50,962 nucleotides of DNA from Rubricoccaceae bacterium (GCA_035304085.1 DATGQT010000028.1:1-50962); one strand, 5' to 3'. Counted from the stretch's first letter, positions 17,419 to 29,936 are shown. The notes: generated by a model from the letters alone, not told the origin. Made by a program: numbers and translations.

Positions 17419-17568
17419 GGCATCGGCGGCGTGGTCCGCTCGCTCGGGTTGCCAGCGAAGCCCTTTCCGTTGCTCCATTTGCTTCCTTCGATGCTGCGCC
17501 CTATCCTGAGCACGCCACCACGCGTCGGTTATAGTTCCCACCACACGTCCTGTCCTGGAGGTCTGTCC

Positions 17569-20500
17569 ATGAGACACGCTCCCTGCTTCCTCCTTTCCTT
17601 ACTCGCCGTGGTGCTCACCCTCGCTCCGCTCTCTGCCGGGGCGCAGGAAGACCCACTCGGGTTCGGTTGCCCGGTTCCGGAGGACGCTGCGGGACCTGAG
17701 GCCGCCCAGCTGTTCTTCCCCGACCACGGCACCATCAATGCCCTCGTCGTCTTCGTCCAGCACAGGGACGACTACTTCGAGCACTGCTGGGACTACACGA
17801 CGGACACCGACCTCTCGACGAACAGCCCCGGCGCGAACAACCCCTGCTACGCCGGGCCCGACGTGCCTCATCTGGAGTCGTGGACCGACGACGTGGCGAC
17901 GGAGTGGTCGGCGGAGTGGAGCCGGGGCTCCGACCGCCGTCTCCCGCAGTGGGCCTCGAACGAGTGGCTCGCGGAGCCGGACAGCTCTCCGAGCAGCTAC
18001 GTCGAGGGCTCTCTTAGCCAGTACTACCACGTCAACTCCTGGGGCCGCTTCCGCCTCCACGGGTACGTCTACCCCGAGGTCTACATCCCGGAGCATGACC
18101 CGAGCTGGTACAGGACTCACCCGCACCCCTTCGAGAACGGCGGCGTCCGGCTCTCCCACGAGATCCTGAGTTCAGACTCGATCCAGGCCTACGTAGACTC
18201 GATCCCCGATGCCCACCTGGTGTTCGACCGCTACACGAACGGGACCAACGTGACCGTCGACTCCATAGGCGACGCCGCCCGCGACGGCATCTTCGACATG
18301 GTCATCCTCATCTTCAGGTTCAACAAACTGTGCGAACTGGGGGTCTATCTCGACGACAGCGGCGAGTGCATCAGTGAGTACGCGACGGCTATCACCTCGC
18401 TGGGGAGCAGTGCTGTTTATAGGTGGGAACCTGAGTTCCAACCCTGGTACGACGGGTTCTCCCCCGATCCCTTGTACCTCGGCGGCTTGCAGGTCCGCGA
18501 CAACCTCGCGAGCGGGTCAGGCGTGTGGTCCATCGGATACAATTCTCGGACGGCCACGCTCGCCAACGCGCATGAAATCGGGCACCGGCAGCTCTACTAC
18601 AAACATGCCGAGGACGACTTCTACGCCGTGATGAACGGGACGGGGAACGGCCTCACGATGTTCGCTGCCAGTGAGCGCGTCCAACTCGGATGGACCACCC
18701 TCCACACGCTCAACATCGACGAACTCCCCGACCCCATCACGCCGTTCGCCCTCGGGGACGCCTTCCAAGAAGGCGAGGTGCTCTCCATCAAACGGTCCGC
18801 CCTGTACCACTCGCTCGTTGAGGCAAGGACGCACTCGAACTTCTGGGACCGCCCGCCGGACGGCGTCAACGCCGACGGCGACCGGAACGACCAGTACATC
18901 ACCGACGAGGGGCTCCTCATCCAACGGGTGGAGCCGAACATCGGCGATTGGTCGACCAGCATGGAGAACCACGGGATGAGCGTGGAGGACACGACCGGGA
19001 CGCTGGTCCGGCCTCCGGGCGTCTACTACGGCGACACCCACTTCACGTTCTCCCCCGGCGACGCCTACACCCCGTTCTCGAAGTTCCCGTTCTTCTTCAT
19101 GCGCAACTTGCTGCTCGACCGGCGGGCTGCGATCACGGACATCACGCCCGTGGGGACCGGGTTCGGCTTCAACGTCTGGCGGGACTACCTGATTGAGGAC
19201 GCCTCCCCGAAGGTGCTCCGCACGAACTACACCTTCGAAAAGGGTCCCTCCCTGGGCTACATCGAGGACTGGGTACTCGGGGGTACGTTCCGGTTCGATG
19301 CCGGCTTCGAGTTCCTGACGCCGCCCCACTGCGGCAACTGCCGCTCGATAACCCTCCTCCCGGACGCCCGCTTTGTCGTCCCGATAGGCGTGGACGCACG
19401 GCTCAAAGGGAAGCCGGAGCAGCCGTTCCCGTTCACGGCGGGCACCGGGGCGCGCGTGATGGTCGATGGGATCTCGTCCGTCCCGGGCCTGCTCCCCGGG
19501 TCGTTCCACACTGAGCACGTGGCGTTCTCGGCCACGGACGCCGGCGGGTGGAAGGGGCTCTACTTCGGGACCGGCGCTTACGGTCGCCTCTACGACACGC
19601 GCGTGGAGGGGGTGGTGTGGCCGACAGCCCAGCTCACCAACGCCGCCGTCGCCGCCTACGGCGCCAACCTCGTCCTCGACGACGAATCCGTGATCCGGGG
19701 GGCAGAGAAGGCGCACGGCCTCCTCGCCGTCGGCGGCACTGCTACCGTGAAGGGTTCGAGCCGCATTTTCGAGAACGAGGGGTATGGCGCCGTGGCGAGC
19801 ACGGGGGCCACCGTCACCGTTGAGGGTGGCACTGAAGTCGAGCTGAACGCCGCCGGGGGCGTGGGGGGAACGGGCTACGGGACAAGCGTTGTCTTCGGTC
19901 CCTCGGAGATCTCCCTCAACGGCGGGCCAGGCGTGCACGTCACGGCCAATGCGAGCGCCTACTTCGAGTCTACCCTCGTCTCGGGCGATCAGGTCTTCGT
20001 CGAGAGAAACGCGGGTGGGGTCTCCGCCACCGGCGGCGGCTACGTGAACGCGGGGATGTGCGACGGCCCCACCATTTGCAACCACATCCCACACCAGATT
20101 ACGGAGAGTACAGTCACCGGGCCCTTCGATGCCCGCTCGGTCACCGGCTCCATGCTCTTCGCCCAGGGCGACTTCTGGGGCGACGGGATAGACGACCCCT
20201 CCGACCTCGTCCTCGTTCAGGACACCTCCAGCTACCTCTCGGTAGTGCCCATCGCCACGACGCCGGGCTCGCCGCCCCGGCTGGCGGGGAACGGGGGGCG
20301 ACGCGCCGCCGACGCGCCGACGCGCGGGTCCGGCCAGGCCGCCGTCGCCCTCATCGCCGAGGCCGAGCGGCTCCTCGCCGCCGGCGACACCACGGCGGCC
20401 GGTGCCCTCGTCGTAGACGCCCTCACGGGCGTCGCCGCCGACACCACGGCGGCGGAGGACGATCGGCGGGCCGCCTTCGAGGGGGCCGGGCGGTTCCTCG

Positions 20501-21219
20501 CCCTCACCCAGCCCGCCGCCGCCTTCGACTGGCTCGGTGCCCGCGCCGATGAGGGTGGGGCGCTCCGGCCGTGGGCGCTCCGCGGGCTCGCCGTCGCCCA
20601 CGCCTCGGCCGGGGAGGCAGCGGGGGCGGAGGACGCCGCGTCCGCGCTCGTCGACGAGGACCCTTCGGGCGAGCACGGGCTGGCCGGGCACGGCCACCTC
20701 GTCCGCCTCGCCGTGGCCGGCGAGGACGAGGCCGGGGCACTGTCGCGTCTGGAGGCAATGGCGGTCTCGTTCCCCGAAGAGGAGGCGACGGCGCAGGCGG
20801 CCTCCGTCGTAGCGGCGGCGTTCCCCGACGCCGATGTAGAAGGGGTGCTGAACGGGGCGCTCGGGCGGATGGCCGGCACGGATCCGGCGTCGGGGCCCGC
20901 GCAGGTGAGCGCCACGGCAGGCGACGCCCCGGCGTCGTTTGCCGTCTCGGCGGTGCGCCCGAACCCGGTGAGCACGGCATCGGGGCGCGTGGCGCTGGAC
21001 GTGTCGCTGTCGGTGGACGCGCGGGTGGAGGTCGTCCTCTACGATGCGCTCGGGCGCCGGCTGGGCGTCGTCCACGCTGGCGGGTTGCAGGCGGGCGAGC
21101 ACGCGCTCGCGCTGACGACGGCGGCGCTCCCTTCCGGCATCTACCTTGTCTACATCAGGGTGCGCGATGTGGGCGGTTCGTCGCATGTGGCGATGCGGCG
21201 GTTCACCGTCGCTCGGTAA
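17569..21219 (+). CDS. Secreted HEXXH zinc-metalloprotease-like protein with beta-helix repeats, an Ala-rich helical region and a T9SS C-terminal sorting domain
   Basis: Start at ATG 17569 with a signal peptide (MRHAPCFLLSLLAVVLTLAPLSAGAQ). HEIGH is encoded at 18571-18585. The N-terminal part resembles M6/InhA-like peptidases (tentative). G/T/V-rich repeats are typical of a parallel beta-helix. The C-terminus is VRPNPVS...LPSGIYLVYIRV...RRFTVAR. GC is visibly lower than in the neighbours. Confidence 0.75.
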   Translation: MRHAPCFLLSLLAVVLTLAPLSAGAQEDPLGFGCPVPEDAAGPEAAQLFFPDHGTINALVVFVQHRDDYFEHCWDYTTDTDLSTNSPGANNPCYAGPDVPHLESWTDDVATEWSAEWSRGSDRRLPQWASNEWLAEPDSSPSSYVEGSLSQYYHVNSWGRFRLHGYVYPEVYIPEHDPSWYRTHPHPFENGGVRLSHEILSSDSIQAYVDSIPDAHLVFDRYTNGTNVTVDSIGDAARDGIFDMVILIFRFNKLCELGVYLDDSGECISEYATAITSLGSSAVYRWEPEFQPWYDGFSPDPLYLGGLQVRDNLASGSGVWSIGYNSRTATLANAHEIGHRQLYYKHAEDDFYAVMNGTGNGLTMFAASERVQLGWTTLHTLNIDELPDPITPFALGDAFQEGEVLSIKRSALYHSLVEARTHSNFWDRPPDGVNADGDRNDQYITDEGLLIQRVEPNIGDWSTSMENHGMSVEDTTGTLVRPPGVYYGDTHFTFSPGDAYTPFSKFPFFFMRNLLLDRRAAITDITPVGTGFGFNVWRDYLIEDASPKVLRTNYTFEKGPSLGYIEDWVLGGTFRFDAGFEFLTPPHCGNCRSITLLPDARFVVPIGVDARLKGKPEQPFPFTAGTGARVMVDGISSVPGLLPGSFHTEHVAFSATDAGGWKGLYFGTGAYGRLYDTRVEGVVWPTAQLTNAAVAAYGANLVLDDESVIRGAEKAHGLLAVGGTATVKGSSRIFENEGYGAVASTGATVTVEGGTEVELNAAGGVGGTGYGTSVVFGPSEISLNGGPGVHVTANASAYFESTLVSGDQVFVERNAGGVSATGGGYVNAGMCDGPTICNHIPHQITESTVTGPFDARSVTGSMLFAQGDFWGDGIDDPSDLVLVQDTSSYLSVVPIATTPGSPPRLAGNGGRRAADAPTRGSGQAAVALIAEAERLLAAGDTTAAGALVVDALTGVAADTTAAEDDRRAAFEGAGRFLALTQPAAAFDWLGARADEGGALRPWALRGLAVAHASAGEAAGAEDAASALVDEDPSGEHGLAGHGHLVRLAVAGEDEAGALSRLEAMAVSFPEEEATAQAASVVAAAFPDADVEGVLNGALGRMAGTDPASGPAQVSATAGDAPASFAVSAVRPNPVSTASGRVALDVSLSVDARVEVVLYDALGRRLGVVHAGGLQAGEHALALTTAALPSGIYLVYIRVRDVGGSSHVAMRRFTVAR

Positions 21220-21224
21220 CCGCC

Positions 21225-22565
21225 ATGCGTGACCTGCTTATCGTTCTCTTCGTGCTCGCGCTGCCCGGGGGAGCAGCGCGAGCACAGGGGAAGTTGACGG
21301 GCGGGCTCCTCACGTGGGAGCGCGTCGGCGACTTCCCCGTCAAGCCTACGGCTCTCGCCTTCGATGGCGCGGGGGCATTGTATGCCGTCCATATCGTCGA
21401 TGTATACCATCTCGACCTCTCGGGCGGCTTCCCCGGCGTGTGGGAGTTCCGGAGCGAGGAAGCCGACGATGATGCGCTGCTCGGGCTCGGCCCTGACACC
21501 CTCATCGCCACGGGCGGCCATACCGAGCGCTCGACCGACGGCGGCTGGACATGGGTCGAAGTCCACGAGGACGGGAGCGATAGCTCGTTCGGGCTCCACG
21601 AAGCCGCTCCCGATACCCCCTTTGCGGGAAACCTCTTCGTCGGGAGCTTCCCCCCCGCGGCCTCAGAAGACCGGGGGGCCACATGGGAGGAGCGGGGGCA
21701 GATCCCCGGGTTCGGTGAGAGCGCTGACGTCTTCGTCACGCTCTCCTCCGGCCGCCTCGTCGCGGGCGCCCACTGGGGCGCCGCCTACTCCGATGACGCG
21801 GGGTGGACGTGGCAGACCTCCTCGCTGTGGGAGTTCGGCCGATTTCTGTGCGACATCATCACGCGGGTCGAATCGCCGGACGGGGGAGAGCGTGTGCTCG
21901 TAAGGGGTGTGGACGCGCTGCTCCCCCACGCCCGCGTGTGGTACAGCGATGACGGCGGGGAGACGTGGCTGCCGGAGGAAGGCGTCCCACTCCCGGATGC
22001 CGACAACGGTGTAGGCCGAGGGCATGCAGCGGGGCTCTGGGCGCTCGGTGGGGCGCGGGCGCTGGCCGTCCTCGGGCGGGGCGTGGTCTACGCGACCGAG
22101 GATGGGGGTGAGACGTGGTCGGAGGTGGGGCAGCTCCCCGACGTCGATGAGAACACCTACGCGCACACCTCGGTGCTTGGCCTCGACGGTCGGCTCTACG
22201 TCGGCCTCGTCCGAATCGGCAGCCAGCCGGGGAACAGCTGGGTATACCGGACGGAGCAGCGGGTGGCGCCGCCCGTCGCCGCCGAGCCGGGGCTGGAGCC
22301 GCAGGAAGGGCTGGGGCTGGAAGTGCGGCCGAACCCGTCCTCCGGCGAGGTCGTCGTCGAGGTCACGCTGGCCGCGCCGAGCGCCGTCCGTCTCACCGTC
22401 CACGACGCGCTCGGGCGGGAGGTCGCCGTCGTCCACAACGGCCAGCTCCCTGCGGGCGCCCGCACGTTCGCCTTCGACGGCGCTGCGCTCCCCTCCGGCG
22501 TCTACGTCGTGCAGATGGAGGCGAAGGGGGCCTCGGTGAGCCGCCGCTTCACGCTCGTGCGCTGA
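21225..22565 (+). CDS. BNR/Asp-box beta-propeller protein with a T9SS C-terminal sorting domain
   Basis: Start at ATG 21225, 5 nt after the previous stop, with a signal peptide. There are five S/T-x-D-x-G-x-T-W boxes (STDGGWTW, SEDRGATW, SDDAGWTW, SDDGGETW, TEDGGETW). The C-terminus is VRPNPSSGEVVV...LPSGVYVVQM...RRFTLVR. Confidence 0.8.
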   Translation: MRDLLIVLFVLALPGGAARAQGKLTGGLLTWERVGDFPVKPTALAFDGAGALYAVHIVDVYHLDLSGGFPGVWEFRSEEADDDALLGLGPDTLIATGGHTERSTDGGWTWVEVHEDGSDSSFGLHEAAPDTPFAGNLFVGSFPPAASEDRGATWEERGQIPGFGESADVFVTLSSGRLVAGAHWGAAYSDDAGWTWQTSSLWEFGRFLCDIITRVESPDGGERVLVRGVDALLPHARVWYSDDGGETWLPEEGVPLPDADNGVGRGHAAGLWALGGARALAVLGRGVVYATEDGGETWSEVGQLPDVDENTYAHTSVLGLDGRLYVGLVRIGSQPGNSWVYRTEQRVAPPVAAEPGLEPQEGLGLEVRPNPSSGEVVVEVTLAAPSAVRLTVHDALGREVAVVHNGQLPAGARTFAFDGAALPSGVYVVQMEAKGASVSRRFTLVR

Positions 22566-22588
22566 GCGCACGAAGGGGAAAAACGAAA

Positions 22589-22611
22589 GGCGCGGAGACG
22601 GCCTCCGCGCC
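22589..22611. terminator. Bidirectional hairpin between convergent genes
   Basis: GGCGCGGAG-ACGGC-CTCCGCGCC, flanked by an A-rich 5' side (AAAACGAAA) and CTTC. Confidence 0.55.
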
Positions 22612-22636
22612 CTTCAGAGGAGTGCACGCGCTCCGG

Positions 22637-24415
22637 TCAGCGGCCGGAGCCGAGCGCGCTCGTGTCGAACGCGGCGAGGGCCACCTCGTGCGCGAACGTC
22701 TCCCCGGTGACCTGGAGCGTGTACGTGTCCGAGGGGAGCCCCTCGCCGAAGACCTCGAACGCCTCGGCCGTCCCGGCGTCGAGCGTCCCGTCGAAGACGG
22801 TCTTGACGCGGCGGCCGTCGCCGTCGACGACGTCGAGGCGGATCTGCTGCCCCTCGGCCACGGTCACGGCCACGCGGAGCGTGCCGCCGCGCTCACCCGG
22901 GTAGGGCTGCGAGACGCGGAAGTTCTCGGGCGCGGCGACGACGGCCTCGGCGGCGGCGCTCACCTGGATCCGCCCGTCGGCGCCCAGCTGGACGAGGCGG
23001 AAGGCGTGGCGGCCGGGGCTGAGCCCCTCGACGTGGTACTCCGGCGCGGCCGTGGCCGGGAGCGTGGCTACGGTGAGGAAGGGGCCGCCCTCGTGGCTGC
23101 GCTGGAGGGTGAGGGGCTCGCCGGAGTTCCGCTCCACCACCCACGTCACGTCCGCCGCCCCCTCCTCGACGGTGACGTCGAAGCGGGAGAGGTTGAGCGA
23201 CGTCGTGGCCGTGGGGCGGACGACGAACAGCCCGCCCTCGATCCCGCTGACGACGATGGACCCGCTCGCGAAGTAGGGGTAGACGCTCCACGCGCCGTTG
23301 AACTGGGCGTCGTCGGTCTCGGGGTAGATGTCGAAGAAGGCGACCTGCCGGATCTGGCCGGCCTCGATCCCGCTGATGTCGAGGACGCGGAGGCCGGAGG
23401 CGTAGTTGGCCTGGTAGACGCGGTCGCCGAGGACGTAGAGGTTGTGGTCGGCGCTGCCGACGGGGGCCTCGAAGATCGTGAGGAGCTCGGGGCTGTCGAG
23501 GTCCTCGAGGTCGAAGGCCATCGTGCGCGTGCGCTCGGAGAACCCCTGGATCTCGTCGAGCTCGTCGTCGGCGAGGAAGTAGCGGTGGTCCTCGGTGAAC
23601 CACCCCTGGTGGGTGTACCCCGGCGTGGGGTAGGTGCCCTGGGCGATCTGGACGGGGTTCGCCTTGTCCGTCACGTCCACGATGGTGATGGTGTCCTCGT
23701 TGGAGCCGACGCAGATCTCGCGGCCCTGGTAGTCGGGGTCGGGGCCGCGGTAGATCACGCACTGGGCGTCGTGCGAGTAGCCGTCCTCGTCGAAGCACCC
23801 GGCGAACTGGGGGTTCAGCGGCTCCCGGATGTCGATCATGTAGAGGCCGCCGGCGCACTCCTGCGCGCCGATGGGGTAGGCGAACCCGGACTCCTCGTTG
23901 ATGGCGATGTTGTGGGCGCTGCCGAGGGGGGTCTCGTCGGGGCCGGTGTACGTGACGTCGGCCTCGAACGTGCGGGCGGGGTCGTGGTCGAGGCCGCGGA
24001 GGCGGGTGAGGTCGAACACCTGCATCCCGTGGGCCGGCGCCTCGCTGACGACGAAGGCGTGGTCGCGGTAGACCTTGATGTCGCGCCAGATCGAGGGCTC
24101 GGTGGCGGTGGGGAGCTTCCCGAGGTTGATCGGGTGGGCGGGGTCGGTGACGTCGACGAACCCGGTGCCGTCGTTGAGCCCGACGAGGGCGTACTCGCGG
24201 CCGGTCTCGGGGTCGGTCCACCCCCAGATGTCGTTGCCGGAGCCGGAGCCGAAGTCCTCGAGCGAGACGTGGCTGATGAGGTCCATGCCGTCGCAGGCGT
24301 ACGCGCCGGCGTGGCCGTCGGTGCAGGGGAGGGGCTGGGCCGAGGCGGCGCTGGCGAGGCCGAGGGCCAGCACGGCGGCGCCGAGGGCCAGCCCGGAGGC
24401 GGGGCGTGTGGTCAT
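22637..24415 (-). CDS. Choice-of-anchor-B / LVIVD-like beta-propeller protein, paralog A (extra Ig-like domain plus a T9SS-CTD-like end)
   Basis: Start at ATG 24415 with a signal peptide. Family hallmarks are PCTDGHAGAYACDGMDL, NDIWGWTDPETGREYALVG and WRDIKVY. It also has SAHN, YSHDAQC, YTHQGWFTED and DHNLY. The family name comes from memory of the motif pattern. Confidence 0.75.
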   Translation of the reverse strand: MTTRPASGLALGAAVLALGLASAASAQPLPCTDGHAGAYACDGMDLISHVSLEDFGSGSGNDIWGWTDPETGREYALVGLNDGTGFVDVTDPAHPINLGKLPTATEPSIWRDIKVYRDHAFVVSEAPAHGMQVFDLTRLRGLDHDPARTFEADVTYTGPDETPLGSAHNIAINEESGFAYPIGAQECAGGLYMIDIREPLNPQFAGCFDEDGYSHDAQCVIYRGPDPDYQGREICVGSNEDTITIVDVTDKANPVQIAQGTYPTPGYTHQGWFTEDHRYFLADDELDEIQGFSERTRTMAFDLEDLDSPELLTIFEAPVGSADHNLYVLGDRVYQANYASGLRVLDISGIEAGQIRQVAFFDIYPETDDAQFNGAWSVYPYFASGSIVVSGIEGGLFVVRPTATTSLNLSRFDVTVEEGAADVTWVVERNSGEPLTLQRSHEGGPFLTVATLPATAAPEYHVEGLSPGRHAFRLVQLGADGRIQVSAAAEAVVAAPENFRVSQPYPGERGGTLRVAVTVAEGQQIRLDVVDGDGRRVKTVFDGTLDAGTAEAFEVFGEGLPSDTYTLQVTGETFAHEVALAAFDTSALGSGR

Positions 24416-24566
24416 GGTATGACGGACGAGTAGGGCCGCGGTGGGGGCCGGGTGGAGGGGGCGGCGAGCGCCGGGGCCGATCCAACGGCCGGGCCGGCGC
24501 CGCTGTTGCGTGGTCCTGGCGAGAGAGCCCGCGTGCGGACCCCGGCCAGCGACGTTCGAGCGGCGG

Positions 24567-26072
24567 CTAGTGTACGAGCGAGAGGCGGCGGGTTGCGGTG
24601 AAGTCCGGGCCCGTGACGCGGACGAGGTAGAGCCCGGCGGGGAGGTCGGCCCCGTCCACCGCCAGCACCAGCGGCGCCGACGGCGCGGCCGGCCCCTCGT
24701 AGAGGAGGGCGACGCGGCGGCCACGGAGGTCGAGCACCTCGGCGACGACCTCGACCGGCTCCGGCACCGTGAGCGTGAGCGTGCTCCGGCCGTCGGCCGG
24801 GTTCGGCACCGGCGCGCTGAGGACGGTGTGGGCCTGCGGGGCCGACGGCTCGGCGGCCGAGGGGAGGAGGTCCGTCTGTAGCACGAACAGCCCGTTGTCG
24901 CGGTCGTTGGCGATGATGGTCCCGCTCGCGAAGAACGGGTAGTTGCTCCACTGCCCGTCGTACGACTCCCCGTTGCCCTGGGGGTACGTGTCGAAGCTGC
25001 CCACCTCGACGAGCGTGCCGTCGTCGATGCCGGAGAGGTCGAGGATGCGGAGGCCGCCCTCGTAGTTCGAGAGGAAGGCGTGGTTGCCGCGGATGTAGAG
25101 GTTGTGGTCGGTGGTCTCGATGGGACCGAAGTAAGTGAATGCGAACTCGGGGTTGTCGAGGTCCTCCACGTTGAAGATGAGCGTCCGCGTCGTCGGGGAG
25201 ACGGAGTCGTCGAGCTCGTCGTCGACGAGGAAGTAGCGGAAGTCCTCGGTGAACCAGCCCTGGTGGGTGTACCAGGGCTCCGGGTAGAACCCCCGGCTGA
25301 TGGGCTCGGGGTTCGCCTTGTCCTCCACGTCCACGATCACGATGTGGTTCTCGTTCGAGCCGACGCAGATCTCCTTCCCCTGGTGGTCGGGGTCCGGCCC
25401 GGCGTAGGTGACGCACTGGGCGTCGTGGGAGTACCCGTCGTCCGGGTAGCAGCCGGCTTCGACGGGGTTCAGCGGGTCCCGGACGTCCACGATGTAGAGG
25501 CCGCCCGAGCACTGGAACGAGCCGACGACGTAGGCGAACCCACTCTCGGTGTCGATGGCGACGTTGTGGGCGCTGCCGAACCCGGTGAACCGGGCGTCGT
25601 GGGTGAACGTGACCGGCGGGCTCGCCACGTCGCGGAGCCGCGTGAGGTCGAAGACCTGGAGGCCGTGGCTGCCGGCGTTGTCGGCGACGACGAAGGCGTG
25701 GTCGGCGTAGACCTTGATGTCGCGCCAGGTGGAGGCGTCGGTGGCGGTGGGGAGCTTGCCGAGGTAGACCGGCGCCGTGGGCTCGGTCACGTCCACGAAC
25801 GCGGTGCCGTTGGTGAGGCCGACGAGGGCGTATTCCCGCCCGGTCTGGGGATCGGTCCACCCCCAGATGTCGTTGCCGCGGGAGGGGACGACGGGGCCGA
25901 AGGTCGAGAGCGGGAGGTTGGCCAGGAGGTCCACGCCCTCGCACGGGTAGTTGCCCGCGAAGCCCCCCTCGCAGGGGGTCTGTGCCCGCGCGGGGACGGC
26001 GGTGAAGACGCAGAGGGCGAGCGCCGCGAGGAAGGCGGCGCCGCTGAAGGCCGGGAGAGGGCGGGAGGGCAT
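24567..26072 (-). CDS. Choice-of-anchor-B / LVIVD-like beta-propeller protein, paralog B, with a T9SS CTD
   Basis: Start at ATG 26072 with a signal peptide. It has the same motif set as paralog A. The C-terminus is PVPNPADGRSTLTL...LPAGLYLVRV...RRLSLVH. Confidence 0.78.
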   Translation of the reverse strand: MPSRPLPAFSGAAFLAALALCVFTAVPARAQTPCEGGFAGNYPCEGVDLLANLPLSTFGPVVPSRGNDIWGWTDPQTGREYALVGLTNGTAFVDVTEPTAPVYLGKLPTATDASTWRDIKVYADHAFVVADNAGSHGLQVFDLTRLRDVASPPVTFTHDARFTGFGSAHNVAIDTESGFAYVVGSFQCSGGLYIVDVRDPLNPVEAGCYPDDGYSHDAQCVTYAGPDPDHQGKEICVGSNENHIVIVDVEDKANPEPISRGFYPEPWYTHQGWFTEDFRYFLVDDELDDSVSPTTRTLIFNVEDLDNPEFAFTYFGPIETTDHNLYIRGNHAFLSNYEGGLRILDLSGIDDGTLVEVGSFDTYPQGNGESYDGQWSNYPFFASGTIIANDRDNGLFVLQTDLLPSAAEPSAPQAHTVLSAPVPNPADGRSTLTLTVPEPVEVVAEVLDLRGRRVALLYEGPAAPSAPLVLAVDGADLPAGLYLVRVTGPDFTATRRLSLVH

Positions 26073-26089
26073 CGGAGCCGAGGGCGGGG

Positions 26090-27613
26090 TCAGTGGACGA
26101 GGGCGGCGCGGCGGGTGGCGGTGAAGTCCTCGCCGACGACGCGGACGAGGTAGAGGCCGGCTGGGAGCGCCGTCGCATCGAGGATCAGAGTTAGGGGGGC
26201 GCCGGCGGCGACGGGGCCGTCGTGGAGGACGGCGACGCGGCGGCCGGCCACGTCGAGCACCTCGGCCGTGACCGCCTGCGTCCGCGCGACCGAGAGCCGG
26301 AGGGTGATCCTCGAACGGAACGGGTTGGGCACCGGGGCGCTCAGGGCGAAGCCGGCGTCGCCGGGCGCCTCCGGCTCCGCCGCCGTCGTCGGCAGGTTCG
26401 GCCGCAGGACGAACAGGCCGTAGTCCGTGTCGTTGGCGACGACGGTGCCGCTCGGGAAGAACGGGTAGTTGCTCCACTGCCCCATCGTCCCGCTCGCGTC
26501 GGTGTCCCAGTACGTGTCGAAGTAGGCGACCTCGGTGACGAGGTCGTCGTCGATGCCGGAGAGGTCGAGGATGCGGAGGCCGGTGGTGTAGTTGGAGAGG
26601 TAGGCGTAGTGGCCGCGGATGTAGAGGTTGTGGTCCGACGACGGGAGCTCGCTGAAGTAGAAGAAGTCGAACTCGGGGTCGTCGAGGTCGGTGAGGTCGA
26701 AGACGATGGTGCGGGTGTTCGACGTGAGCCCGGTGATCTCGTCGAGCTCGTCGTCGACGAGGAAGTAGCGCTGGTCCTCGGTGAACCACCCCTGGTGGGT
26801 GTAGGCGGGATTCGGGTAGAACCCCCGGCTGATGAGGACGGGGTTCGCCTTGTCCGTCACGTCGGTGAGGGTGAGGGTGTCCTCGTTCGAGGAGACGCAG
26901 ACCTGTCGGCCCTGGTAGTCGGGGTCGGGGCCGCGGTAGACCACGCACTGCGTGTCGTGGGTGTAGCCGTCCTCACCGAAGCAGCCGGCCTGCGTGGGGT
27001 TCAGCGGGTCCCGGATGTCCACGATGTAGAGCCCGCCCTCGCATTCGCCGGAGCCGACGGCGTAGGCGAACCCGCTCTCGGTATCGATGGCGATGTTGTG
27101 GGCGCTGCCGAGGGGGGCGTCGTCGGGGCCGGTGAAGTGGGCGTCGGCCTCGAACGTGACCGGCGGGCTCGCCACATCGAGGAGCCGCGTGAGGTCGAAC
27201 ACCTGCATCCCGTGCTCGGAGGCCTCGCTGACGACGAAGGCGTAGTGACCGTACGTCTTGATGTCGCGCCAGAACGAGGACTCGGTGGCGGTGGGGAGCT
27301 TCCCGAGGTAGACGGGGTTCACGGGGTCGGTGACCTCGACGAAGGCGGTGCCGTCGAGGAGGCCGACGAGGGCGAACTCCCGCCCGCTGTCGGGGTCGGT
27401 CCAGCCCCAGATGTCGTTGCCGTAGAACGTGCCGAACGTGCCGTGCGGGAGGTGCGCGTAGAGGTCCACGCTCCCACAGGGGAAGTTGTTGAAGGATGTG
27501 CCGGGGTTGCCGTCCTCGTCGGCGACGCCGCTCTGGCAGGTGACGAGGCCCTGGGCGCGGGGAGTCGCAGCGAGGGCGAGGAGGGCGAACACAACGGCGA
27601 AGGCGGCGCGCAT
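26090..27613 (-). CDS. Choice-of-anchor-B / LVIVD-like beta-propeller protein, paralog C, with a T9SS CTD
   Basis: Start at ATG 27613 with a signal peptide. The N-terminus is CQSGVADEDGNPGTSFNNFPCGSVDL. The C-terminus is PVPNPFRSRITLRL...LPAGLYLVRV...RRAALVH. It lies 17 nt from paralog B. Confidence 0.78.
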   Translation of the reverse strand: MRAAFAVVFALLALAATPRAQGLVTCQSGVADEDGNPGTSFNNFPCGSVDLYAHLPHGTFGTFYGNDIWGWTDPDSGREFALVGLLDGTAFVEVTDPVNPVYLGKLPTATESSFWRDIKTYGHYAFVVSEASEHGMQVFDLTRLLDVASPPVTFEADAHFTGPDDAPLGSAHNIAIDTESGFAYAVGSGECEGGLYIVDIRDPLNPTQAGCFGEDGYTHDTQCVVYRGPDPDYQGRQVCVSSNEDTLTLTDVTDKANPVLISRGFYPNPAYTHQGWFTEDQRYFLVDDELDEITGLTSNTRTIVFDLTDLDDPEFDFFYFSELPSSDHNLYIRGHYAYLSNYTTGLRILDLSGIDDDLVTEVAYFDTYWDTDASGTMGQWSNYPFFPSGTVVANDTDYGLFVLRPNLPTTAAEPEAPGDAGFALSAPVPNPFRSRITLRLSVARTQAVTAEVLDVAGRRVAVLHDGPVAAGAPLTLILDATALPAGLYLVRVVGEDFTATRRAALVH

Positions 27614-27623
27614 GGCGGGGCGA

Positions 27624-29147
27624 TCAGTGGACGAGGGAAGCGCGGCGGGCGGCGGTGAAGTCCTCGCCGACGACGCGGACGAGGTAGAGCCCCGACGGGA
27701 GCGCACGCCCGTCGAGCCGGAGCACGAGCGGGGCGCCGGCCGCGACGGGCGCGTCGTGGAGGACGGCGACGACGCGCCCGGCGGCGTCGAGGGCCTCGGC
27801 GCGGACGCGCTGCGAGCGGGCGACGGTGAGGCGGAGGGTGGCCTCGCCGCGGGACGGGTTGGGCACCGGGGCGCTCAGGGCGAAGCCGGCGTCGCCGGGC
27901 GCCTCGGGCTCCGCCGCCGTCGTCGGCAGGTTCGGCCGCAGGACGAACAGCCCGTTGTTCTGGTCGTTGGCCACGACGGTCCCGCTCGGGAAGAACGGGT
28001 AGTTGCTCCACTGCCCGTCCCACCCCTCGGGCGACTGGCGCGTCGGCTCGCTGTCGAAGTAGGCGGCCTCGGCGAGGGTGCCGTCCTCGATCCCGGAGAG
28101 GTCGAGGATGCGGAGGCCGCCGTCGTAGTTGCTCTGATACGCGTACTGGCCCTTCACGTAGAGGTTGTGGTCGCGGGTCGGGACCTCCCCGAGGTGCGCG
28201 AAGGCGAACTCGGGGTTGTCGAGGTCCGAGACGTCCATGACGAGGGTGCGCGTCCCGCCCGAAGAGGAGTCGAGCTCGTCGTCGGCGAGGATGTAGCGGA
28301 AGTCGTCGGTGAACCAGCTCTGGTGCGCGTAACCGGGGTTGGGGTAGTAGACGCGGCTGATGAGGACGGGGCTCGCCTTGTCCGTCACGTCCACGAACAC
28401 GAAGTGGTCGCCGCTGCCGAACGAGCTGCCCTGGGAGCCGACGCAGATCTGGCGGCCGGCGTAGTCGGCGTCGGGCCCCTCGTAGACGAGGCACTGCGCG
28501 TCGTGGGTGTACCCGTCGGAGCCGAAGCAGCCGGCCTGCGTGGGGTTCAGCGGGTCCCGGACGTCCACGATGTAGAGGCCACCCGAGCACTCGTCGGAGC
28601 CGACGGCGTAGGCGAACCCGCTCTCGGGGTCGACGGCGACGTTGTGGGCGCTGCCGAACCCGGTGAACCGGGCGTCGTGCGTGAACGTGACCGGCGGGCT
28701 CGCCACGTCGAGCAACCGGGTGAGGTCGAAGATCTGGAGGCCGTGGTTGTTCGCCTCGCTGACGACGAAGGCGTGGTCGGCGTACGTCTTGATGTCGCGC
28801 CAGGTCGAACTCGACGTGGCGGTGGGAAGCTTGCCGAGGTAGACGGGGGCGTTGGGGTCGGTGACCTCGACGAAGGCGGTGCCGTTGTCGAGGCCGACGA
28901 GGGCGAACTCCCGCCCGCTCGGGGCGTGGGTCCAACCCCAGATGTCGTTGCCGTAGTTGGTGCCGAACGTGCCGTGCGGGAGGTGCGCGTAGAGGTCGAC
29001 GCTCCCACAGGGGAAGTTGTTGAAGGGCGTGCCGGGGTTGCCGTCCTCGTCGGCGACGCCGCTCTGGCAGGTGACGAGGCCCTGGGCGTGGAGGGCCGGG
29101 GCGAAGACGAGGGCGGCGAAGGCGGCGAGGAGGAACGGCAGGCGCAT
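27624..29147 (-). CDS. Choice-of-anchor-B / LVIVD-like beta-propeller protein, paralog D, with a T9SS CTD
   Basis: Start at ATG 29147 with a signal peptide. It is 507 aa, like paralog C, and shares near-identical DNA patches with C. The C-terminus is ...LPSGLYLVRV...RRASLVH. It lies 10 nt from paralog C. Confidence 0.78.
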   Translation of the reverse strand: MRLPFLLAAFAALVFAPALHAQGLVTCQSGVADEDGNPGTPFNNFPCGSVDLYAHLPHGTFGTNYGNDIWGWTHAPSGREFALVGLDNGTAFVEVTDPNAPVYLGKLPTATSSSTWRDIKTYADHAFVVSEANNHGLQIFDLTRLLDVASPPVTFTHDARFTGFGSAHNVAVDPESGFAYAVGSDECSGGLYIVDVRDPLNPTQAGCFGSDGYTHDAQCLVYEGPDADYAGRQICVGSQGSSFGSGDHFVFVDVTDKASPVLISRVYYPNPGYAHQSWFTDDFRYILADDELDSSSGGTRTLVMDVSDLDNPEFAFAHLGEVPTRDHNLYVKGQYAYQSNYDGGLRILDLSGIEDGTLAEAAYFDSEPTRQSPEGWDGQWSNYPFFPSGTVVANDQNNGLFVLRPNLPTTAAEPEAPGDAGFALSAPVPNPSRGEATLRLTVARSQRVRAEALDAAGRVVAVLHDAPVAAGAPLVLRLDGRALPSGLYLVRVVGEDFTAARRASLVH

Positions 29148-29261: not shown

Positions 29262-29774
29262 TCACGGCCGCGTCGGGTCTCCGACGGCCTCGAACCGGTT
29301 CCGCTCCCGGTTCTTCCGCACGGCCTCCGGCCGGAACACGCACCCGTTCATCGTCACGTAGACGCCGGGCGGGAGCGTCTGCACGGCCGCCGCCGCGAAG
29401 CCCACGTTGAACTCGGCGTCGGTGGCCTTGAACCGGGCCGGGGTGAGGGAGCCGACGAGGACGACGGTCTTCGAGGGCGCGGGGCCGAGCGCCTCGGCCA
29501 CGGCCTTCGCCGTCTCCACCATCGTGTCGGTGCCGTGGGTGAGGATGACGCGGTCGGCCTCGGCCCTCGCCACGCGCTCGGCGATGAAGGCGCGGTCGGC
29601 GTCGGTGAGGTCGAGGCTGTCCTTCTGCATGAGCGCCTCGACGGCGTACGTGAACGCGACGCCGGCGGCCCGGAGGATCTCGGTGACCTGGGGCTCGCCG
29701 ACCTCGTACTCGCTCCGGGCGTCGAAGTACACCTTGTCGATGGTGCCGCCGGTGGTGAAGATCTGGACGTGCAT
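29262..29774 (-). CDS. Short asparaginase-family protein (N-terminal catalytic domain only)
   Basis: MHVQIFTTGGTIDK (the TGGTI nucleophile motif) and ILTHGTDTMVETA (the HGTDT motif). At 170 aa it lacks the C-terminal domain of type I/II asparaginases. Confidence 0.75.
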   Translation of the reverse strand: MHVQIFTTGGTIDKVYFDARSEYEVGEPQVTEILRAAGVAFTYAVEALMQKDSLDLTDADRAFIAERVARAEADRVILTHGTDTMVETAKAVAEALGPAPSKTVVLVGSLTPARFKATDAEFNVGFAAAAVQTLPPGVYVTMNGCVFRPEAVRKNRERNRFEAVGDPTRP

Positions 29775-29936
29775 CGGTCAGTGGTCCGTGGTCAGTGGTC
29801 CGTGGTCAGTGGTCCGTGGTCAGTGGTCAGTGGTCAGTGGTCAGTGGTCAGTGGTCAGTGGTCAGTGGGGCAAGGACGGGACGGGAGAAGTTCCCCTGTC
29901 TTCTGCCCTCTGTCTTCTGACCCCTGACCCCTGGAC
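29775..29936. repeat. Element E8: 13-unit heptamer tandem array plus conserved core plus pyrimidine word arm
   Basis: 29776-29866 is (GGTCAGT GGTCCGT)x3 then (GGTCAGT)x7. It is followed by GGGGCAAGGACGGGACGGGAGAAGTTCCCCTGTCTTCTGCCCTCTGTCTTCTGACCCCTGACCCCTGGACC. The array ends 1 nt from ATG 29774 of the downstream (minus-strand) gene. Confidence 0.9.

Follow-up and report, generated by a model that had tools for sequence, protein, structure and literature searches.

The stretch of DNA analysed here (50,962 nt from a Rubricoccaceae bacterium, GCA_035304085.1 DATGQT010000028.1; hereafter the window) contains four co-directional genes on the minus strand, which we refer to as genes A to D. Gene A (29147..27624) encodes a 507 aa protein composed of a signal peptide, a choice-of-anchor B propeller (residues 43-404, at 27936-29021), a linker and a C-terminal domain (CTD; residues 429-501, at 27645-27863). 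Gene B (27613..26090) also encodes 507 aa, with the propeller at 26402-27490 and a T9SS type A CTD at 26108-26329, and gene C (26072..24567; 501 aa) has its propeller at 24876-25976 and its T9SS type A CTD at 24582-24806. The 592 aa product of gene D (24415..22637) contains a propeller (23216-24328), an extra beta-rich spacer of ~75-100 aa between propeller and CTD, a diverged CTD and an additional C-terminal tail. The spacings A-B, B-C and C-D are 10, 17 and 151 nt; the gene lengths and gaps given in an initial annotation of this DNA were exact.

A hairpin resembling an intrinsic terminator (22584..22616, minus strand; 15-bp stem with 9 G-C pairs, and a T run) lies 21 nt past the stop codon of D, between convergent genes. 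The coding strand shows nothing resembling a terminator inside the array, so A-D are probably co-transcribed as one unit. An asparaginase-N-domain-like gene (29262..29774, minus strand; 170 aa; PF00710, E 3e-25) is located 114 nt upstream of A and has a counterpart ahead of the single or tandem choice-of-anchor B genes at three syntenic Rhodothermota loci (L003, L004 and L005). This gene is a conserved syntenic anchor of the array and is possibly the first gene of the A-D unit.

On the other side of the array are two genes (17566-21219 and 21228-22565) that the initial annotation described as T9SS cargo genes directly upstream of it. Both are on the plus strand, convergent with D, and belong to a separate transcription unit; they represent a convergent, lineage-specific insertion. 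Against the CTD profile TIGR04183 (curated cut-off 23 bits), only the product of the second passes, with 33.4 bits, and that of the first falls short at 20.0 bits.

Family membership and C-terminal domains

Profile searches, suggested at the outset as a check on family assignment, identified all four proteins as strong, full-length members of the choice-of-anchor B family (TIGR04312). A, B, C and D score 443.7, 468.7, 497.0 and 506.6 bits, respectively, against a curated cut-off of 100 bits (E 6e-133 to 5e-152), and the matches span profile positions 1-8 through 363 of 364. All four also exceed the gathering score (20.2 bits) of the LVIVD repeat profile PF08309, with 23.6, 27.3, 38.8 and 22.3 bits, although these scores are sums of weak repeats in which no single stretch is significant alone. 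Sec-type signal peptides ending in AxA-Q can be read directly from the sequences. The sorting signal after the domain that the family name implies for TIGR04312/PF08309 LVIVD proteins is here a T9SS CTD, and nothing sets A-D apart from other TIGR04312 members.

A T9SS-type CTD had been assigned to all four proteins. B and C carry one by the TIGR04183 cut-off (27.5 and 28.4 bits); A scores below it (17.3 bits), D gives no match, and none of A-D reaches the cut-off of PF18962 (27 bits). For A and D the assignment is by homology: the CTD of A is homologous to those of B and C in a four-way alignment, and the end of D matches a CTD profile made from 105 short homologues at 62 bits (E 1e-20), which makes it a diverged CTD, extended by some ten further residues. 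From these domains we infer that A-D are attached to the cell surface through the T9SS.

The four-way alignment also confirmed that every motif listed in the initial annotation is kept in all four paralogues. NDIWGWT, WRDIK(V/T)Y, GSAHN(I/V)A, GY(S/T)HD(A/T)QC, Y(T/A)HQ(G/S)WFT(E/D)D and DHNLY are invariant, as is an N-terminal Cys pair. To judge from the TIGR04312 E-values and from the retention of the His in 152-155 of 155 domain instances (described below), this sharing goes far beyond chance. A-D are ordinary members of a known family, for which a sharper, testable functional hypothesis can now be framed.

Conserved residues in the propeller fold

The gene C protein was the sequence modelled, and all residue numbers follow gene C. 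Its AlphaFold2 model (pLDDT 92.8) has seven four-stranded blades followed by a beta-sandwich CTD. H169, H216, H270 and H323 are the residues with which the innermost strand, strand A, begins in blades 3, 4, 5 and 6, respectively, in agreement with the earlier proposal of one His motif per blade. Because each opens the innermost strand of consecutive blades, the four His in the model ring one mouth of the central channel. An acidic cluster, D285-E286-x-D288, is invariant and falls in the turn after strand B of blade 5. Using conservation, model position and correspondence with the phosphotriesterase described below, we predicted metal-site residues in gene C (25104..25568, minus strand), namely H169 (25566-25568), H216-D217 (25422-25427), H270 (25263-25265), D285-E286 (25215-25220) and D322-H323-N324 (25101-25109).

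Conservation was assessed across 155 domain instances from 149 cluster representatives at 50% identity (the closest 150 of 12,786). H169, H270, H323, D285 and N324 are present in all 155, and H216 and E286 in 152. The predicted-site residues are likewise invariant or nearly so in a second set of 128 domain instances, and of 125 full-length copies taken from genome loci, 124 carry the HHHH+DE signature. Near-absolute invariance across the 149 representatives extends to D68, R117, K120, Q139, D285, E286, D288, D322 and N324, and among the structural elements conservation peaks in strand A (mean top-residue frequency 0.81). H216 of blade 4 and E286 of blade 5 are lost together in all four variant domains, as expected for residues of one shared site.

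The initial annotation had proposed that His and Cys motifs jointly build the metal site. Among 156 aligned domains, C188 and C208 are both present in 138 and C220 and C236 both in 137; neither member of a pair is present in 18, and a single Cys occurs in at most one. Presence or loss strictly as pairs indicates that the conserved Cys form disulfides outside any metal site rather than serving as ligands, which rules out the Cys part of that proposal. In the model, C220 on strand A and C236 on the neighbouring antiparallel strand B of blade 4 are in register. The disulfides of gene C predicted from pairwise presence and absence (25365..25511, minus strand) are C188-C208 (25509-25511 and 25449-25451) and C220-C236 (25413-25415 and 25365-25367); a third Cys pair, C34-C44, is encoded at 25941-25973 on the same strand.

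A Foldseek search of the PDB with the model ranked 5hrm first (E 7e-11, with a TM of 0.50-0.51 for all 501 aa, CTD included). This entry, like 5IOJ, is Sb-PTE, the phosphotriesterase or haloalkylphosphorus hydrolase of Sphingobium sp. TCM1. In Sb-PTE, a binuclear Mn2+ centre activates water for hydrolysis. Its ligands are H258, H317, H389 and H475 from blades 3-6, Glu-407, and a bridging Glu-201 from blade 2; the numbering of ligand and disulfide residues reportedly goes back to Mabanglo et al. in 2016, a paper cited in the reference list of PMC11656708. All 12 positions carry the expected residue type in the retrieved sequence, and the six ligands are invariant within the Sb-PTE family. Members of that family contain PF08309 LVIVD and are annotated as LVIVD repeat proteins.

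The relationship to Sb-PTE, which is ~15% identical to the A-D proteins, emerges only at the profile-profile level. Searches of PDB sequences with phmmer and hmmsearch gave E-values of 0.11-0.39, at the repeat level only, and no choice-of-anchor B protein was among the best 120 of 289 Sb-PTE relatives. Comparison of a 121-sequence family alignment with a 58-sequence Sb-PTE family alignment by hhalign gave 83% probability (E 8.6e-6), and propeller domains only, in global mode, gave 94.9% (E 1.1e-8), colinear over all seven blades. H169 aligned directly with H258, D217 with E318, N67 with N137, and E286 with E407, the last in every hhalign mode tried. H216, H270 and H323 were offset from H317, H389 and H475 by 4-9 residues, solely through gap placement. 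By DSSP, every His in both models is offset by -2 to +3 residues from where strand A begins in blades 3-6, and the Glu is 1-2 residues past strand B in blade 5. H169 is therefore matched to its Sb-PTE counterpart by alignment, and the other three His by blade and strand-A register rather than by automatic alignment. Of the ligands, only the bridging Glu-201 has no counterpart; it pairs with S114 in the hhalign alignment. The site may therefore hold a single metal, be bridged in another way, or serve a different chemistry; D118, near S114, is kept in 141 of 155 domains and D68 in 149. The family had initially been described as lacking an assigned function. This holds for TIGR04312 itself in the profile libraries searched and the papers found, but Sb-PTE is a characterised enzyme within the same LVIVD superfamily.

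Alternative readings and array history

A different reading of the His-lined site is that it binds copper, with the propellers participating in copper handling or redox chemistry at the surface together with MbnP/MbnH-type proteins instead of Mn/Zn hydrolysis. We regard this as unlikely. It derives from gene neighbourhoods, which we surveyed with SBBP, MbnP and MbnH profiles built from five examples each (49, 30 and 28 matches in other loci). In 49 Flavobacteriaceae-type loci, an SBBP propeller lipoprotein gene is co-directionally downstream of the choice-of-anchor B gene or array with gaps of ~10-30 nt; MbnP comes next in 30 of these (PF20243, E 1e-26 to 1e-33 in two checked examples), and an MbnH-like protein with two CxxCH motifs is encoded in 28. 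Multi-copy arrays were confined to MbnPH-positive loci (15/28 vs 0/15, p = 4e-4, a statistic that ignores phylogeny). This association was nonetheless seen in only one bacterial family, at one syntenic site between thiL and suf, so the linkage may be inherited gene order, and genes for MbnP, MbnH and SBBP were found neither in the 51-kb window nor in L003-L005. MbnP and MbnH (PF20243 and a di-haem MauG-like peroxidase) are partner genes, not homologues of the propellers; a WxW motif is conserved in both MbnP and the propeller, where the invariant WGW of NDIWGWT is at the channel mouth (W70 in 155 and W72 in 154 of 155 domains). MbnH turns a Trp of the MbnP WxW motif into kynurenine, generating a Cu(I) site (PMC11951088), and MbnPH pairs are widespread outside methanobactin operons (PMC3621798). 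The Met or free Cys ligands that usually make up Cu(I) sites are, however, not conserved in the propellers, and their sole characterised homologue, Sb-PTE, binds Mn/Zn. The link to MbnP/MbnH in the Flavobacteriaceae operons nonetheless counts for copper and against Mn/Zn hydrolysis.

A broader version, which we consider very unlikely, is that choice-of-anchor B proteins are a very large, unrecognised class of surface metalloenzymes whose His4-carboxylate centre is loaded, or even completed post-translationally, by partner proteins. In Flavobacteriaceae the partners would be the co-operonic, apparently surface-exposed MbnP and MbnH, with MbnH possibly oxidising a tryptophan of the WGW motif. 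The centre would then be a copper or other redox site and not a simple hydrolase, and the Rhodothermota arrays, this one included, would be partner-independent.

It is also quite unlikely that A-D serve only for binding or adhesion at the surface, without catalysis, and that their His are structural, comparable to the His of the GH/structural tetrad before strand A in WD40 repeats. In WD40 repeats, a His directly before strand A is structural, the position seen here. Loop conservation is alike on both faces (0.59 on the presumed active face vs 0.64 on the other, p = 0.24), and the fusion partners seen in relatives are surface-protein domains such as Ig-like, CARDB, LRR and laminin-G, not catalytic ones. 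In the literature, LVIVD repeat proteins are given a surface or attachment role (PMC2447325; bioRxiv 10.1101/2022.05.06.490989). The WD40 pattern, with a His before strand A in most blades that pairs with Ser/Thr in strand B, Asp in the B-C turn and Trp in strand C, does not apply here. The His occur in only four of seven blades, the same four that supply metal ligands in Sb-PTE, and thus are not a generic repeat feature, and reading the sequence of blades 3-6 revealed no recurring Ser/Thr-Asp-Trp tetrad partners. Loss of H216 together with E286 of another blade fits an inter-blade site and not an intra-blade brace, and so many polar residues of the channel being almost absolutely invariant points to catalysis more than to adhesion.

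The initial annotation treated the four-fold amplification as special. However, tandem sets of 2-5 matches occur in 30 of 82 loci (81 relatives and the window), two of them probably split single genes, and arrays of this size recur in distant Flavobacteriaceae and Chloroflexota; a four-gene array is ordinary for the choice-of-anchor B family. Pairwise identities among A-D are 51-75% overall (74.7% for A vs B). Patches of 97-98% nucleotide identity between A and B (codons 32-61 and 399-428) and of 90% between A and C (codons 133-192) show ongoing recombination or gene conversion between the copies. D is closest to its own orthologue, P0103 (78%; 586 aa), and A to P0018 (77%), nearer in each case than to the window paralogues, and a further D orthologue of 586 aa is present at 7941-9701 of L005. 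At this site, other Rhodothermales genomes carry arrays of three and four genes that include a D-type copy of 586 aa (last in the L005 array, third of four in L004), and Rubricoccus marinus has a single copy there.

A-D are thus old paralogues, each with orthologues of its own in related genomes, a history that speaks for functional divergence rather than dosage. Of the two selective pressures first suggested, dosage and substrate range, the former therefore loses ground. That a single gene was recently amplified for dosage, yielding more product rather than different specificities, is improbable, since the near-identical patches and the lone R. marinus copy that count towards it are set against the low overall identities, the closer orthologues, the shared Rhodothermales arrays with their D-type copy, and the arrays in distant Flavobacteriaceae and Chloroflexota.

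Proposed function and comparison with known propellers

Each of the A-D products is a Sec-exported protein with a T9SS-type CTD and a seven-bladed LVIVD-type beta-propeller as its body. We propose a function on this basis. The invariant His of blades 3-6 and the blade-5 acidic cluster would form a metal centre at the channel mouth, in the arrangement that binds binuclear Mn2+ in the remote homologue Sb-PTE. The proteins would act as surface-displayed metal-dependent hydrolases, and different substrates are probably divided among the four paralogues, which are old and diverged. We hold this explanation as a whole with moderate confidence. The choice-of-anchor B family most likely carries an Sb-PTE-like metal centre and functions as a surface hydrolase, a suggestion based on the His4 and Glu arrangement shared with the binuclear site. 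From this correspondence we infer a bound metal, its identity and number, and hydrolytic chemistry. As to substrate, homology to Sb-PTE says little, since that family, too, has no assigned natural substrate. The secreted metal-dependent enzyme envisaged in the initial annotation thus gains support from the matching His and Glu positions but loses its Cys component.

Among other propeller hydrolases, the Ca2+-dependent enzymes PON1 and DFPase place their catalytic metal where the central channel opens on one side, with ligands from the starts of the innermost strands. As in these enzymes, Asn and Asp are abundant at the mouth of the modelled propeller (N67/D68, N170, D217, D285/D288 and D322/N324). 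PON1 and DFPase have six blades and Asn/Asp/Glu ligands, whereas seven blades and four His are found here; neither enzyme was among the top 50 Foldseek matches, and no sequence relationship to them was detected.

Sb-PTE itself differs from the choice-of-anchor B proteins in having its disulfides at other positions, long insertions in blades 4-6 and no T9SS CTD. It is plasmid-borne beside IS6100 in sphingomonads, and its family is small (289 matches vs at least 7,990 for choice-of-anchor B). The two nevertheless have in common an exported, seven-bladed LVIVD-type propeller with structural disulfides, an acidic residue that directly follows the His of blade 4, and, in blade 5, a Glu past strand B.

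The four-gene array and its history

The four propeller genes A, B, C and D form a head-to-tail series on the minus strand of the window (G+C ~72%), at 29147..27624 (507 aa), 27613..26090 (507 aa), 26072..24567 (501 aa) and 24415..22637 (592 aa), with spacers of 10, 17 and 151 nt. These lengths and spacings are those of the initial annotation, and every motif it listed as shared is invariant in a four-way alignment, where pairwise identity is 51-75%. Each protein begins with a hydrophobic signal peptide ending in AxA-Q. Because a terminator-like hairpin with a 15-bp stem follows D (22616..22584, minus strand) and the coding strand of the array itself has none, the four genes are probably transcribed together. 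The transcript possibly includes a gene for a 170-aa asparaginase-N-like protein (29262-29774, minus strand), 114 nt upstream of A. A sigma-70 promoter scan of the array, which is uninformative for this phylum, returned no sites.

An asparaginase N-terminal-type domain makes up the whole of the asparaginase-N-like protein. In Rhodothermales, its gene is conserved in the position just ahead of the choice-of-anchor B gene or array (in relatives, locus L003 9469-9981, L004 6322-6831 and L005 4307-4810). The gap between the two is 19 nt in Rubricoccus marinus. In the window, a heptanucleotide tandem repeat, (CACTGAC) x 13 with 93% match (29776-29868, minus strand; unique in the window), stops 1 nt before the ATG of this gene. 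The repeat is missing from the equivalent place in L003-L005, L007 and L014, and L006 has only a degenerate trace. Possible roles are a slipped-strand switch or an element of the 5' UTR.

The four-fold amplification had been read as a sign of selection for dosage or substrate range at the cell surface. Across 82 loci with matches (81 relatives and the window), 52 had a single copy, 19 had two (two probably split genes), three had three, seven had four and one had five, so tandem arrays are a habit of the choice-of-anchor B family (TIGR04312). The copies are old paralogues rather than a recent burst, because D is closest to the relative P0103 (78% identity) and A to the relative P0018 (77%), each nearer than any paralogue in the window. 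Patches of high nucleotide identity between A and B (97-98%; codons 32-61 and 399-428) and between A and C (90%; codons 133-192), against a background of ~72-88%, form a mosaic that suggests gene conversion within the array.

In Rhodothermales, a syntenic block of trp genes, DUF4837, an AtuA_ferredoxin-like gene, a small ORF and the asparaginase-N-like gene is followed by one propeller gene in Rubricoccus marinus, three in GCA_013003465 (the last of 586 aa) and four in GCA_033720695, and the gene order of the window is repeated on a second metagenome contig. The Rhodothermota anchor block (DUF4837, AtuA_ferredoxin-like and asparaginase-N-like genes) looks like plain synteny. Conserved in synteny, the window array is ordinary for Rubricoccaceae-like genomes. 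Outside the Flavobacteriaceae, ten neighbours scanned against Pfam (OmpA, FecR, MerR, BNR, HZS_alpha, Lnt) included none that recurred.

Two plus-strand T9SS genes (17566-22565) had been taken as part of the context of the array. They separate it from RecQ and GT2 genes in the window, and because convergent RecQ and GT2 genes directly follow the array in GCA_013003465, the pair, which is missing from the syntenic locus L005, was inserted between the array and RecQ and shows no evident link to the propellers. One gene encodes a 1216-aa secreted protein (17566-21219, plus strand) with a HEIGH zinc-protease-like motif, no match in a Pfam scan and a sub-threshold T9SS-type C-terminal domain (CTD; 20.0 bits against a cut-off of 23), and the other is BNR/sialidase-like (21228-22565, plus strand).

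Family, proposed cell-surface anchoring and operon partners in Flavobacteriaceae

A profile search of the kind proposed in the initial annotation placed A-D as full-length members of TIGR04312 (444-507 bits against a cut-off of 100), and all four pass the weak PF08309 LVIVD threshold; they are ordinary members of a catalogued family. That family comprises at least 7,990 90%-identity clusters at E <= 1e-5, with 12,786 50%-identity clusters at E <= 1e-3 and 2,278 at E <= 1e-30. In a one-genome-per-species collection, it accounted for 592 of the first 600 pattern matches listed. Matches came from Bacteroidota, Rhodothermota, Chloroflexota, Acidobacteriota, Actinomycetota, Gammaproteobacteria and Marinimicrobia.

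The literature searched gave no function for the choice-of-anchor B family, and the family name itself retrieved no papers. For LVIVD, the literature found comprised a 2004 account of the repeat and brief references to such proteins as presumably acting at the surface or in attachment. Long relatives are fused to generic surface-protein modules, which gave no catalytic hint. Several relatives (P0121-P0125) carry two propeller domains per polypeptide. In two actinomycetes, a Lentzea and a Streptomyces (L043 9532-10395; L053 9538-10398), a gene for a conserved, membrane-anchored ~290-aa protein, for which a Pfam scan gave no match, comes after the choice-of-anchor B gene.

All four proteins had been proposed as T9SS cargo. 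B and C pass the cut-off of TIGR04183, the T9SS type A CTD model, and A falls below it. Generic CTD models did not match the tail of D, which scored 62 bits (E 1e-20) against a CTD profile made from 105 short homologues; this family-specific match shows that the CTD of D is a diverged one, with an additional beta-rich spacer of ~75-100 residues in front of it.

In Flavobacteriaceae, the choice-of-anchor B gene or array is located between thiL and the suf genes. Loci of this type have co-directional downstream genes at gaps of ~10-30 nt, namely an SBBP/delta-60 propeller lipoprotein (49 loci), MbnP (PF20243; 30 loci, E 1e-26 to 1e-33 in two checked examples) and an MbnH-like di-haem protein with two CxxCH motifs (28 loci). 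Example operons with 1-5 propeller genes are L010 8007-12879, L019 4580-15637, L020 3636-14284, L044 3862-13019 and L057 4781-14564, with ~25 further loci. MbnH is a MauG-like enzyme that makes the kynurenine of the MbnP Cu(I) site from the Trp of a WxW motif (PMC11951088); MbnP/MbnH pairs are common beyond methanobactin operons (PMC3621798).

Multi-copy arrays occurred in MbnP/MbnH-positive loci only (15/28 vs 0/15, p = 4e-4, not corrected for phylogeny). The association offers a lead on metal identity, either as a rival pointer or as a complementary one. However, it is not evidence about the window locus, and it stays a lead because SBBP, MbnP and MbnH genes are missing from the window and from related Rhodothermota loci. 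The SBBP, MbnP-like and MbnH-like proteins start with a lipobox Cys and an acidic run (CGKDD, CGSDDD, CSSSDPD; L010 9437-12879 and equivalents in L019, L020, L044 and L057) similar to the signal that marks lipoproteins for surface exposure in Bacteroidota. Were it such a signal, the MbnP/MbnH pair would be located at the cell surface, next to the T9SS-anchored propellers.

Propeller model and residue conservation

The AlphaFold2 model of C, computed from an alignment of 121 sequences (mean pLDDT 92.8; strands assigned by DSSP), has seven four-stranded blades, an N-terminal strand as closure and then a beta-sandwich CTD. The innermost strand of each blade, strand A, starts with a conserved motif: N67-D68-I-W70-G-W72 (blade 1), W116-R117-D118-I-K120 (blade 2), H169-N170 (blade 3), H216-D217 (blade 4), H270-Q271 (blade 5), D322-H323-N324 (blade 6) and W375 (blade 7; numbering of C). 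The invariant D285-E286-x-D288 comes after strand B of blade 5. In propellers generally, the central channel is lined by parallel A strands, whose N-terminal ends lie at the same mouth as the B-C turns. Because of this topology, H169, H216, H270 and H323, at the strand-A starts of blades 3-6, would ring one mouth of the channel in the model, as the initial annotation had anticipated for the His motifs.

Conservation was scored over 155 domain instances from 149 cluster representatives, many of them multidomain proteins, at 43-62% identity to C. H169, H270, H323, D285, N324, W70 and W375 are present in all 155, and H216 and E286 in 152. Among 128 further instances from genome loci, 124 of the 125 full-length cases have the HHHH+DE signature. 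All four exceptional domains (domain 2 of P0121, both domains of P0124 and one genome locus) have H216 replaced by Ser together with E286 by Met and retain H169, H270 and H323; the three from P0121 and P0124 also have D68 replaced by Asn. Such joint loss of blade-4 and blade-5 residues fits a shared site, and the variants may represent loss of a sub-site that could help to dissect a two-metal centre. Among the structural elements, conservation is highest in strand A (0.81). Loop conservation did not differ between the presumed active face and the other face (0.59 vs 0.64, p = 0.24).

The conserved cysteines had been included in the proposed metal or active site. Both residues are present in 138 domains for C188/C208 and in 137 for C220/C236, 18 domains lack both Cys of a pair, and at most one has a single Cys. 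Because presence and absence are strictly pairwise, and C220 and C236 are in register on adjacent strands of the model, the cysteines are best read as predicted disulfides. Their pairwise co-loss rules them out as metal ligands, leaving the histidine part of the proposal.

Comparison with the Sphingobium phosphotriesterase

The top Foldseek match of the C model in the PDB was 5HRM, the phosphotriesterase of Sphingobium sp. TCM1 (Sb-PTE; E 7e-11, TM 0.50-0.51 normalised over all 501 residues). Searches of the PDB with C (phmmer) and with the family profile (hmmsearch) gave repeat-level matches only (E 0.03-0.7), to an NHL repeat, Sb-PTE, FlgD and the mirolase CTD. Sb-PTE was the sole propeller enzyme among them (E 0.1-0.4). 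Many Sb-PTE relatives have PF08309 and the name 'LVIVD repeat protein', so the two families belong to the same repeat superfamily.

As reported by Mabanglo et al. (2016), Sb-PTE has a binuclear Mn centre with ligands Glu-201 (bridging), His-258, His-317, His-389, Glu-407 and His-475, as well as three disulfides. In the Sb-PTE sequence, which we took from a Sphingobium plasmid, 12/12 ligand and disulfide positions had the expected residue type, and the six ligands are invariant in a 58-sequence alignment of its family. The gene is labelled 'hypothetical protein' (L001 918-4036, Sphingobium xenophagum plasmid p3, NZ_CP022749). An IS6100 transposase lies ~600 bp away, the sphingomonad plasmids that carry the gene are conjugative or mobilisable, and across five plasmids the identity is at least 98% over a 67-aa query fragment.

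With hhalign, the choice-of-anchor B alignment matched the lone Sb-PTE sequence at 18% probability, the two family alignments matched at 83% (E 8.6e-6), and the propeller domains alone in global mode matched at 94.9% (E 1.1e-8), colinear from the closing strand across all seven blades. Direct pairs (C-Sb-PTE) were N67-N137, H169-H258, D217-E318 and E286-E407. The offset of H216 from H317 reflects only the placement of a 5-residue gap; H270 is off H389 by 4 residues and H323 off H475 by 9, in low-confidence stretches. An AlphaFold2 model of Sb-PTE (pLDDT 80) settles the predicted register. In both models, these His lie at -2 to +3 residues from the strand-A start of blades 3, 4, 5 and 6, blade 5 spans 17 residues from strand-A start to strand-B end, and a Glu follows 1-2 residues past that strand. 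From the direct pairs and this strand register, five of the six Sb-PTE ligands are matched by a conserved residue at the equivalent structural position in choice-of-anchor B.

By fold, profile homology and blade-for-blade residue conservation, the predicted site of A-D thus matches the His4-Glu set of Sb-PTE. The central proposal of the initial annotation, a metal or active site made of blade histidines, thereby gains support and a specific form. On this analysis, A-D are most likely metal-dependent hydrolases displayed at the cell surface, with Mn/Zn, Cu or Ca as candidate metals, and the old paralogues probably cover different substrates. The blade-by-blade tie to the crystallographically defined metal centre of Sb-PTE turns an unknown surface repeat protein into a concrete, cheaply testable hypothesis for a very large family with no assigned function. 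The earlier statement that the propellers lack an assigned function stands for choice-of-anchor B in the literature searched, but one LVIVD propeller, Sb-PTE, is characterised. In turn, the residue link to its metal centre suggests an origin for this recently evolved flame-retardant phosphotriesterase.

The bridging Glu-201 of Sb-PTE aligns with Ser-114 of C and has no counterpart, so any metal site may differ in nuclearity and bridging; candidate substitutes are D118 (141/155 domains), D68 (149/155), D217 and D322. Compared with Sb-PTE, the predicted choice-of-anchor B site would therefore comprise the His4-Glu part of the binuclear centre, minus the bridging Glu.
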